A DNA stretch of 64,000 nt from a virus (Duplodnaviria > Heunggongvirae > Uroviricota > Caudoviricetes), in IMG/VR virus record IMGVR_UViG_2703718861_000013, one strand, 5' to 3'. Of the stretch, positions 12,001 to 15,000 are shown in pieces. How positions within the stretch are numbered: position 1 is the first letter of the stretch; each line of letters opens with the position of its first letter. Made by a program: the position numbers.

Positions 12001-15000
12001 GAAGTTAATACCTGTTGATATCAAATTTGAAAAGGACCTTGGATATCCATGCGCAATCATGCCTGCACTGGTCGGGTATTATAACTGGAAAAGAACTCCT
12101 TATGATCGACCGATTTATACCACATCCACTGGTGCTACAGGAAATAAAATATATTCCTGTGAGCATTATTCCGGCGGTGCAACATGGGATATTCGAAAGC
12201 CGTATATAGATAAGGTCCTGGTTATTAATACATCAGTATATGATTAGTTGAAGCGAGTCTTTAATATTCATTTAAAATGTCTAAAAAGATGTATTATTAA
12301 AAAGTTTAGCGTGTTATCTGAATACAGGATATCTTAAATGAAGAGTATAGCAACACTGGTTGTGTGTGCAATCTCCGGGATTGCCTGTGTAAATTTATCT
12401 GCACATGCAGCAGAAGGAAACCATACAATTTCTCTGGGGTATGCGCACTTTCAGTTTCCGGGACTGAAGGATTTTGTAAAGGATGCGACTGCTCATAACA
12501 GGGAGACTTTCAGTCATTTCGTCAACAGAAACTACTTTTCTTCATTGGGCGAATATACAGATGGTCGGGTCAGTGGATATGAAGGCAAGGATAAAAATCC
12601 ACAGGGCATTAATATCAGGTATCGCTACGAGATAACGGATGATTTTGGCGTTATCACCTCTTTTACATGGACGCGTTCTCTCACTAACTCACAGACATTT
12701 ATTGATGTGCAGTCAGCCGATCATACCAGGAAGATTAAGAATCCGGCAGCTTCTGCCAGAACGGATATCAGGGCGAATTACTGGAGTCTGTTAGCGGGGC
12801 CTTCATGGCGGGTTAATCAGTACATGAGCTTATATGCGATGGCAGGGATGGGCGTTGCTAAAGTTAGCGCTGACCTGAAAATTAAGGACAATATTAACAG
12901 TAGTGGCGGATTTTCTGAAAGCAACAGCACGAAAAAAAACTCCCTTGCGTGGGCTGCAGGTGCACAGTTTAACCTGAATGAGAGTGTTACACTGGATGTG
13001 GCTTACGAAGGTTCCGGCTCTGGCGACTGGCGCACGAGTGGAATTACTGCTGGCATTGGCCTGAAATTCTAACCTGTATCCGGTAACCGTTTACTACCCG
13101 CTGTGATGGCGGGTTTTTTATTGCCCGTACAGGGCAAAAACCGTAAATTATGCGTGGGTGCCTTTCGGCTGATGGCTGGAGGGTGAACCTGAAGGCCTGA
13201 TGTGGAAAGGCCCCGAGTCAACTTAACGTTAACCCGAGGCCCTAACACTTCGTACCTTGACAAGTAGAAGGTTAGCGCCTCTCCACTCAGGAGGCAAGCG
13301 CTATGTCGCAAAAATCGCTTATCACCGTCACAATTTGTATGACGGTTATCTTCACTATCTGGATGTTGCACGGTTCGCTGTGTGAGTTCCGGCTGAATTT
13401 GTGGGGAGCGGAGTTTGCGGCGTTCTTACAGTGTAAGCAGTAGGAAAACCGCGACGGGGACGAAAGTCCCCGTCAACTGGTTGCTGAGGTTCAGCCGATA
13501 TGGCACCCGTTTCAGGTGAGAGAATGAACGATAAAATTCTCCGGTATATGCAGCGTGTGGTGAGAAATTCCCGCAACCCTGAATTTATGAATGAAGTTAA
13601 AGACGCCTGCCTTAAAAAGCAGGCGTTTTGTTTTGAGGCACCTGATGGCTTTCTGGTGCTGCGTTCTGTGCTCAGTGCTGATGGTATCCCTTATGTTCTG
13701 GTGTTGCTGGGCGTGTGTACGGGGAGTAACAGCGTTGAGCGTTATCTGCCGGAGGTGAAGACATTAACCCGTCTGGCTGGCGGACGTTGGGCTGAATTTC
13801 ATACGGCAAGGCGGGGATTTATCCGGCTGGGAAAACGTCTGGGCTTTGAGCGAATGCCGGATGATGAGGATGGCTTCATGGTGTTCAGGATAGCGGTCTG
13901 ACTGCCACAGTTTTCATCATCGTGTTTAAACCAACATTGCAATTCACATTCTGACCCTGCTCCGGCAGGGTTTTTTTATTATCCAGGGGGCCATTATGGG
14001 TGGAAGTAAAGGTGGTGGTGATACCAAAGTAAAACCAACAGCAGCGCAAATAGCACAGGAAGAAGTGGCCTGGAAAGGGTGGCAGGATTACAAAAATATC
14101 CTCCGCCCGGCTGAAGATAACTTCATGGAAAAGGTCGATGACCTGAACAGTGAGCAGCAGTACGACAATATCGCTGGCACCACAAATCTGGGGTATCAGA
14201 AACAGTTTGGCGAAGCACGGAAGGAGCTGGCGGGTAATCTTGCTCAGTCCGGTGTTGACCCGTCCAGTGGTCGCTTTAACGCGGTAATGAATGCGAACCA
14301 GAGTGATCAGGTAACCGGGCAGATTGACACAACCACACGGGGGCAGGTATCGCAGGCAGATAAGTATGTTGCCGGGCTACAGGATGTTGCAGCTCTCGGT
14401 TCAGGTCAGAAGGCGGATGCGTTACAGAGTTTTAACTCGCTGGCAGACAGCAGTCTGGCAAAAGCTAAATCGGACGCACAGGCTGCGTTTACGAAACAGC
14501 AGGGGCGAGCCTCTCTTGTTGGCGCTGGTTTGGGTGCGGTAGGTGCATATGCGATGCATAAGGCTGGTGGTAGCGGAGGAAGTGGCGGTGCTAAAACACC
14601 GGGCACCGGCGCTAATGCCATTCAGCATCAGGCTCAGAACTGGAGACTGTGATTATGGAGTACGGTAAATACGAAACACTTGCGAGATACGGTTATACCG
14701 GAGCTGCCCGTCCACAGGGTGACTGGCAGACGTCAGCAGCGCTGACACGCCAACAATACGACGACTGGCGAACCAGATATTTGCCCCGCGTGGCAAGGCT
14801 GGCTGACCTTGGCGAGAACAACAGCCTGATGAATGCACAGCTTGCCCGGGTGGGCGGCCTTGCCACTTCCAGTCTCCGTACAGCGCAGATGGCGCAGGAT
14901 AACCAGATGGCGAGATACGGGGTAAGCCGCCCGGATAATCCCGACAGTAATACGCTGGGGTTACGTAATGCCCTGGCAATTGCTGGCGCGAAAAATGGTA

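Follow-up and report, generated by a model that had tools for sequence, protein, structure and literature searches.

Does the short open reading frame (ORF) that follows the lom gene in IMG/VR virus record IMGVR_UViG_2703718861_000013 belong to a toxin-antitoxin module, and which parts of such a module can be recognised around it? We examined this question in the 64,000-nt stretch of that record referred to below as the window, to which all positions refer. An earlier note on this DNA had described the ORF as an unannotated Hok-like type I toxin. Our results bear out the core of that description: very probably, the lom-adjacent locus is a type I toxin-antitoxin module of the hok/sok type, which a 933W-like Shiga toxin (Stx) 2a prophage carries as a moron in its late region. 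Sequence identity further equates the antisense RNA of this locus with the published 80-nt precursor of 24B_1, an RNA described from phage phi24B. The coordinates of the individual features are collected in Table 1.

The toxin gene

The ORF encodes the 46-amino acid peptide MSQKSLITVTICMTVIFTIWMLHGSLCEFRLNLWGAEFAAFLQCKQ. As described in the earlier note, it has a ribosome-binding site, GGAGG at 13290..13294, with the ATG 8 nt farther on, and the proposed transmembrane helix corresponds to residues 6-22, an unbroken uncharged stretch that is mostly hydrophobic. The motifs SLCE (residues 25-28) and AAFL are both present, and the peptide has the general Hok/Gef layout of about 50 amino acids with an N-terminal hydrophobic helix followed by an L-C-E motif. 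The assignment to the Hok family held in profile searches: Pfam HOK_GEF (PF01848) matches with 33.2 bits (gathering cutoff 22, E 4e-8, profile positions 6-42 of 42) and PHROG 251 ('MokW-like host killing') with 85.8 bits.

To follow the locus across relatives we built alignment A3, in which window positions 13156..13508, the presumed mRNA, stand beside 25 homologues found in Escherichia, Salmonella and Citrobacter (26 loci in total). The start codon and the ribosome-binding site of the toxin ORF are kept in all 26. The median ratio of non-synonymous to synonymous substitution rates (dN/dS) of the ORF is about 0.21 across homologues, and the window copy differs from four copies of the Stx-phage type by 3-6 synonymous and 0 non-synonymous changes. 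Judged by these substitution patterns, the toxin ORF is under purifying selection.

Regarding toxicity, a preprint of 2025-26 that catalogues Hok homologues lists a peptide, 72_1589, identical to the one encoded in the window. It was cloned in pAZ3 under an arabinose promoter; 42 of the 45 homologues assayed were toxic, and 72_1589 is not among the three that the text names as non-toxic. As far as the text of a preprint goes, this answers the toxicity test that the earlier note had suggested.

Structure of the predicted hok mRNA

The Rfam sok model (RF01794) aligns end to end at 13156..13314 with 37.9 bits and a local E value of 7e-7 in a permissive scan. From the position of this alignment, hok transcription would start near G13156; the predicted -10 element upstream has the form TAnnnT and stands at a fixed distance from GGGTGCC across homologues. 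The minimum free energy (MFE) fold of 13156..13508 has -151 kcal/mol (z -6.0) and its two ends are paired, with GGGUGCC and UCGGCUGA (13156..13172) pairing with UCAGCCGA and GGCACCC (13491..13508) in stretches of 7 and 8 bp. The RNAalifold consensus of the 26 loci is 98 % paired and contains 20 double-change pairs, compared with 10.2 in shuffles; when the pairing partner was slid by 1-3 columns as a control, about 40 % of the positions were paired. For the two helices between the tac-like and fbi-like elements (helices 1-2) the paired fraction is 98-99 %, with 4 double-change pairs, and in their second part (columns 10-12 and 369-371) both sides are altered in 8 sequences.

A second set of pairings appears when the 3′ element is removed. 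In the full-length RNA the GGAAAGGCCCC box, which resembles ucb, has CGAGGCC (13235..13241) as its partner, and in the truncated RNA its partner is tac, which then pairs with 13202..13214. This alternative tac/ucb helix is 95 % paired among the 26 loci, with double changes at 10-51, 11-50 and 14-47. The GAGGC element pairs in the truncated fold with GCCUC at 13277..13281, and these pairs are conserved. One locus (L095) carries a G>A change in GAGGC that is matched in both alternative partners (A3 columns 56, 88 and 130). The outer stem of the hairpin that contains the hok ribosome-binding site (helix 7) is conserved as well.

The perfect 9-bp hairpin noted earlier 3′ of the ORF was found with the stem GACGGGGAC (13453..13461) and GTCCCCGTC (13466..13474) around a GAAA loop. 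Five pairs of this hairpin (helix 13) show double changes, and it is a conserved internal element of the mRNA that likely forms the 3′ protective end of the processed form. A role as plus-strand terminator was rejected, as no T run follows the hairpin on the plus strand.

The elements of the R1 hok mRNA switch, namely the tac/fbi, tac/ucb and SD/dcb elements, all have counterparts at the lom-adjacent locus. With R1 hok/sok and the chromosomal hokA-E loci it shares a small single-helix membrane toxin, the post-stop hairpin and an antisense promoter whose position overlaps the ribosome-binding-site region of hok. The locus keeps all tested RNA elements of the hok switch except mok and, in the window copy, the terminator after fbi.

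The antisense RNA and 24B_1

In its hexamers and their spacing (TTGCCT-17-TAACCT) the antisense promoter equals that of the sokD locus found elsewhere in the window (57076..57114), and it is conserved in the 26 aligned loci. The predicted antisense RNA, starting near 13261, folds with -39.2 kcal/mol (z -6.0) into a hairpin of 16 bp preceded by a 5′ tail that stays single-stranded. The 5′ bases of this RNA could pair with the loop CUUGACAA (13256..13263) that a hairpin of the truncated mRNA exposes, an arrangement that would recall, by analogy, the pairing of Sok with its target loop in R1. The earlier note had expected an overlapping mok frame and an antisense Sok RNA in the structured region upstream of the ORF; the antisense promoter and RNA as well as the structured stretch (13156..13314) were recovered, and the mok frame was not.

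The minus-strand RNA itself is known from the literature. 24B_1 was reported as a 20-nt 'microRNA-size' RNA from phi24B residues 45711-45692, between lom and vb_24B_43 (Nejman-Falenczyk 2015, PMC4426718). We placed it by aligning phi24B 45553-46011 with the window locus (alignment A2, 98 % identity), and it has a single exact match in the window. The published primers for reverse transcription PCR of the 80-nt precursor map to 13181 and about 13261. The predicted promoter p24B_1 (-35 TTGACT, -10 CGCTAACCT; PMC4426718) coincides with the Sok-type antisense promoter; its -10 CGCTAACCT is present in the window, and the -35 of the window, TTGCCT, differs from the TTGACT of phi24B by one base. Hfq binds the precursor of 24B_1 according to the 24B_1 literature, and it also contributes to the action of sokW (PMC8621323). 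The occurrence of 24B_1 as a single 20-nt species is consistent with specific cleavage, and no proof of it.

The same DNA has thus been published as the source of a trans-acting, microRNA-like regulator (PMC4426718; Bloch 2023, PMC10732415). The words 'hok', 'sok' and 'toxin-antitoxin' do not occur in the three 24B_1 papers, which do not consider the overlapping ORF, and a literature search for a link between 24B_1 and hok returned, as the only relevant paper with both, a mini-review in which they are treated separately.

The missing mok frame

In R1, Hok is made only if mok is translated as far as the hok ribosome-binding site. Canonical hok loci have this leader frame, and the lom-adjacent locus is without it while GAGGC, which stands at the position of the mok Shine-Dalgarno sequence, is retained as a pairing element. 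Fifteen of the 26 loci have no ATG, GTG or TTG frame across the hok start at all, and the frames of the remaining loci are heterogeneous. The sole such frame in the window begins at TTG 13257; it has no ribosome-binding site and is missing in phi24B. An in-frame upstream extension of hok acting as mok was ruled out by a TAG at 13273, and a mok start after GAGGC by the lack of a start codon 5-10 nt past this conserved element. GAGGC serves here as a pairing partner only. In the hokD locus of the window, used as a positive control, the mok ATG at 57065 lies 8 nt past GAGG.

As there is no mok frame, the toxin would therefore be translated directly or by some other route. The absence of mok throughout the subfamily in several genera points, as far as sequence comparison goes, to a stable design, not to recent decay. 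We also considered a thermodynamic model of activation without mok, in which GAGGC of the truncated RNA captures the strand opposite the ribosome-binding site and binding of the antisense RNA undoes this. The accessibility of the ribosome-binding site changed in the predicted direction in the window and in most of the 26 loci, the shift was small (median unpaired probability over the 26 loci 0.20 for full-length, 0.24 for truncated and 0.20 for target-blocked RNA), and we have not counted the model as support.

Annotation, subfamily and distribution

Regarding annotation, the toxin gene is already known from RefSeq, a PHROGs family and a Hok catalogue entry, so the earlier description of it as unannotated has to be withdrawn. 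Where a copy is identical to that of the window, RefSeq labels it WP_000078907.1 'Hok/Gef family protein', flanked by an Ail/Lom gene on one side and a hypothetical gene on the other, and the exact peptide stands in the UniRef protein collection as Hok/Gef, 'protein HokA' or 'small toxic polypeptide'. The 441-bp locus was found in 1,674 of 5,426 complete E. coli genomes and in 198 phage records, nearly all of them Stx-converting phages (933W, VT2-Sakai, phi24B, P27, P13771); the phage records label the toxin gene inconsistently or leave it unlabelled.

By its sequence, the toxin is a member of a distinct 46-amino acid, mok-less Hok subfamily with hosts in Escherichia, Shigella, Salmonella, E. 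albertii and Citrobacter. C27 (checked in 30 relatives), C44 and the AAFLQCK tail are invariant. The toxin ends in QCKQ, different from R1 hok and the hokA-E toxins, which usually end in an AYES-type sequence. The subfamily copies are located at the ends of lambdoid and P2-like prophages, in some cases as tandem pairs (L057, 2529..2669 and 3001..3141; L091, 1501..1641 and 1991..2131; L092, 1501..1641 and 1995..2135), and tac, the antisense promoter, fbi and a terminator are all present in each tandem copy. Two loci, L026 (about 2841..3206) and L093 (1311..1710), have unrelated DNA in place of the hok promoter and the 5′ tac region and retain the antisense promoter, the ORF and fbi; they may be orphaned or silenced variants.

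The earlier note had placed the toxin closest to HokA. The HokA equivalog NCBIfam NF007290 is indeed the top-scoring named Hok family, and the two toxins share an M-x-QK start, SLCE and an AAFL-x-CK tail with a second cysteine. An identity with HokA was nevertheless rejected, since the score of 38.4 bits is below the NF007290 cutoff of 89 and, in the catalogue preprint, the toxin belongs to cluster 72 and HokA to cluster 93. These clusters were drawn at 60 % identity, and cluster 72 is described there as highly abundant.

HokW could be set aside too. The hokW-sokW module of Sakai prophage 5/933W is a hok module on the same Stx phage family as the lom-adjacent locus, and the Sp5 genome (VT2-Sakai) also holds the lom-adjacent locus at 96.8 % identity. 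HokW is a different gene, with 51 amino acids and an MKQQKAM start, compared with the 46 amino acids of the lom-adjacent toxin, and the hokW start primer matches the window at 57122 only, in the hokD-type gene. The catalogue lists HokW as 35_712 in the HokD cluster and the lom-adjacent toxin in cluster 72. For hokW-sokW, RNase III and Hfq contribute and the toxin is produced after induction (Takada et al. 2021, PMC8621323); hokW speeds lysis and doubles phage release (PMC8621323). The lom-adjacent locus is not mentioned in that paper.

A scan of genome contigs yielded only 7 loci, three of them in records titled Xanthomonas, Planococcaceae and Vagococcus. These three, L003 (Xanthomonas pisi), L004 (a Planococcaceae metagenome-assembled genome) and L006 (Vagococcus sp.), contain near-identical E. 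coli-type hok loci and are probably contaminated assemblies with enterobacterial DNA. Only L006 of the three entered alignment A3, and no taxonomic inference was drawn from any of them.

A model of the module and its alternatives

Taken as a hok/sok-type module, the locus could work as follows. A plus-strand mRNA from about 13156 would encode the 46-amino acid inner-membrane toxin. The full-length mRNA would be locked, as in R1 hok, by the tac/fbi pairing, by the pairing of ucb with GAGGC and by the burial of GGAGG in a hairpin. Once the 3′ element is lost, tac would pair with ucb, and the freed GAGGC could capture part of the stem that pairs with the ribosome-binding site, which would expose the target loop. 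The Sok-type promoter at 13269..13297 would give an antisense RNA of about 60-80 nt, complementary to 13181..13261; on binding the refolded mRNA, this RNA would prevent synthesis of the toxin and mark the duplex for cleavage. By analogy with hokW, the role of the module is probably in lysis timing or in the stabilisation of lysogeny.

Several observations weigh against this interpretation. The hok promoter matches only 8 of 12 consensus positions. Because a promoter scan of 13000..13700 with a threshold of 9 of 12 positions called neither the hok nor the antisense promoter, both being weak consensus matches, both rest on homology and conservation. The RF01794 score of 37.9 at the lom-adjacent locus is below the gathering threshold of 59, which sets the locus apart from the Rfam family and hokA-E, and at gathering thresholds the window has a match at 56953..57127 only; the search for the hok/sok RNA family suggested in the earlier note was in this sense answered by a full-length but sub-threshold alignment. 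No mok frame was found among start-codon frames across the hok start in the 26 loci. In the other examined members with intact downstream sequence, an intrinsic terminator comes after fbi; the Stx-phage copy is without it, a further difference from hokA-E. In equilibrium folding the ribosome-binding site of the window opens only slightly, its unpaired probability being 0.02 in the full-length RNA, 0.09 after truncation and 0.01 when the antisense target of the truncated form is blocked. The toxicity data, reported in a preprint, come from over-expression with an artificial ribosome-binding site. Finally, the plus-strand transcript and the neutralisation of the toxin by the antisense RNA are what we infer.

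The identity of the antisense RNA with the 24B_1 precursor bears on how the published experiments are read. The published 189-nt deletion corresponds to window positions 13105..13291; with it, the antisense gene, tac, ucb and the promoter of hok are lost, as is most of the toxin's ribosome-binding site. For the complementing plasmid pUC18_24B_1, the primers of 2015 (PMC4426718) map to 12993 and 13556, a span of about 564 bp with the entire toxin locus, unlike the 2023 paper (PMC10732415), which gives the insert as the 189-nt region. Because the deletion and the plasmid insert both touch the toxin locus, the toxin was left uncontrolled for in the 24B_1 experiments. Leaky expression of a Hok-type membrane toxin is predicted to lower ATP. 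Strains carrying the 24B_1 locus have lower ATP (PMC10732415), and our hypothesis is that this is due to leaky toxin expression.

More broadly, we propose tentatively that the published phenotypes of 24B_1 deletion and over-production (changes in lysogeny and burst size, quicker induction and reduced ATP) could come in part from deregulation or multiplication of Hok and not from regulation in trans, and that the subfamily could display a mok-free control by a three-way switch, made of the ribosome-binding site, an anti-site and an anti-anti-site. We hold the two parts together to be slightly less likely than not.

The published view takes the locus essentially as a small RNA gene, in which the 80-nt precursor is processed to the trans-acting 20-nt 24B_1 with d_ant, the region upstream of S and sdhB as targets, and the plus-strand ORF is irrelevant to the phenotypes. 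It draws on 2223 identical reads of the 20-nt RNA, on the effects of deletion and over-production on lysogeny, burst size and ATP levels, and on binding of 24B_1 to the sdhB 5′ untranslated region in vitro, which is weak. Against it, 24B_1 is complementary over its whole length to the leader of a toxin mRNA that is conserved and whose ORF shows purifying selection, its promoter is homologous to Sok promoters, both the deletion and, by its 2015 primers, the complementing plasmid affect the toxin locus with no toxin control, and neither the ORF nor hok entered the interpretation of those papers. As a full account of the locus we consider it improbable, but a trans role and a cis antitoxin role of 24B_1 are not mutually exclusive and can coexist.

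A hok relic in decay or silenced, which makes no toxin and hitch-hikes in the phage late region, is a very improbable reading of the locus: the missing mok frame, the missing terminator after fbi in the window copy, the sub-threshold Rfam score, the largely paired ribosome-binding site in all modelled states and the loss of promoter and tac in L026 and L093 would fit such a relic, but the dN/dS of about 0.21 with only synonymous differences among the Stx-phage-type copies, the invariant cysteines and C-terminal tail, the compensatory changes that uphold two alternative RNA structures, the start codon and ribosome-binding site conserved throughout the alignment, the absence of the peptide from the non-toxic homologues named in the preprint text and the subfamily-wide lack of mok in several genera all speak against it.

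As a gene, the toxin of the hok/sok-type module proposed here is ordinary, one more prophage-borne Hok toxin that is annotated and catalogued already. The value of the locus is rather that it joins the catalogue of Hok peptides, the work on hokW in Stx phage release and the papers on 24B_1 as a 'phage microRNA', which are separate in the searchable literature; for a decade, work on the antisense RNA of the lom-adjacent hok has gone on under a different name and interpretation. If the 24B_1 RNA is the antitoxin, the deletion and plasmid experiments need to be re-read with a toxin control. In that case 933W-type Stx phages would also carry two hok modules, which may influence lysis timing and therefore Shiga toxin release. 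With its conserved lack of mok and the other RNA elements kept, the locus lends itself well to asking, as a natural experiment, whether mok can be dispensed with.

Genomic neighbourhood

The first 25 kb of the window (1..25000) are the late region of an O104:H4-type Stx2a phage, with 98 % identity to P13771 over the full length, and the toxin gene adjoins lom there as the earlier note had stated. The intrinsic terminator of lom sets this gene apart from the hok transcription unit. On the other side, in Stx-phage copies, a vb_24B_43-like gene begins where other members of the subfamily carry a terminator. RefSeq starts this gene at ATG 13500, within fbi, and P27 and PHROG 610 favour 13524. The first terminator-like hairpin 3′ of fbi lies within this downstream ORF, and the primary hok transcript may end at it.

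Table 1. Features of the lom-adjacent hok locus and its neighbours, with positions in the window
Feature	Position	Strand	Basis
Hok-family toxin gene, 46 amino acids	13303..13443	+	ORF call, family profile matches, identical catalogued peptide
Predicted hok promoter: -35 TTGCCC 13121..13126, 17-nt spacer, -10 TAAATT 13144..13149	13121..13149	+	Read from sequence
Core hok mRNA, 5′ tac to 3′ fbi (predicted ends)	13156..13508	+	Rfam sok position 1 at 13156; MFE; consensus structure
tac-like 5′ element: GGGTGCC 13156..13162 and TCGGCTGA 13165..13172	13156..13172	+	Folds, covariation
ucb-like box GGAAAGGCCCC	13204..13214	+	Full-length and truncated folds, covariation
GAGGC, at the mok Shine-Dalgarno position of canonical loci	13236..13240	+	Aligns to GaGGC of the Rfam sok consensus
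Hairpin sequestering the hok ribosome-binding site: UAGCGC/GCGCUA, and UCUCC 13280..13284 paired to GGAGG 13290..13294	13273..13303	+	MFE
Post-stop hairpin: perfect 9-bp stem, GAAA loop, outer helix AACCG/UGGUU	13447..13482	+	Fold, covariation
fbi-like 3′ element: TCAGCCGA 13491..13498 and GGCACCC 13502..13508	13491..13508	+	Complementary to tac
Sok-type antisense promoter: -35 TTGCCT (reverse complement of 13292..13297), 17-nt spacer, -10 TAACCT (reverse complement of 13269..13274)	13269..13297	-	Homology, conservation
Sok-type antisense RNA: 5′ tail, 16-bp hairpin 13207..13243, then UUUCC	13181..13261	-	Primers, fold; 3′ end predicted
20-nt 24B_1: loop and 3′ arm of the antisense hairpin	13212..13231	-	Exact single match in the window
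lom (Ail/Lom outer-membrane protein gene), upstream neighbour	12338..13072	+	PHROG 108 'Lom outer membrane protein', E 1e-78; RefSeq
lom intrinsic terminator, 8-bp stem and T run	13096..13120	+	Terminator scan
Downstream gene, vb_24B_43 homologue, PHROG 610	13524..13901	+	ORF call, homology
First terminator-like hairpin 3′ of fbi, two-sided, within the downstream ORF	13603..13635	.	Terminator scan; not conserved in the family

Other features of the window

A canonical hokD/sokD-type locus at 56953..57334 (Rfam sok, 115 bits) served as internal positive control. Its Hok (57122..57277) is identical to K-12 HokD and has an in-frame mok from ATG 57065; the tac/fbi pair is GGGUGC...GCACCC, with a terminator directly after it. 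DicF RNA was found at 51697..51748 (minus strand) and cspA-type thermoregulator leaders at 60422..60845 and 63323..63707 (both plus strand). Towards its right-hand end, the window resembles a cryptic prophage of the Qin type that is distinct from the Stx phage. A few kb past the end of the P13771 match there are two Rfam sRNA-Xcc1 matches on the minus strand (29082..29167 and 29618..29702); one of them clears the gathering score by a wide margin, the other just equals it.

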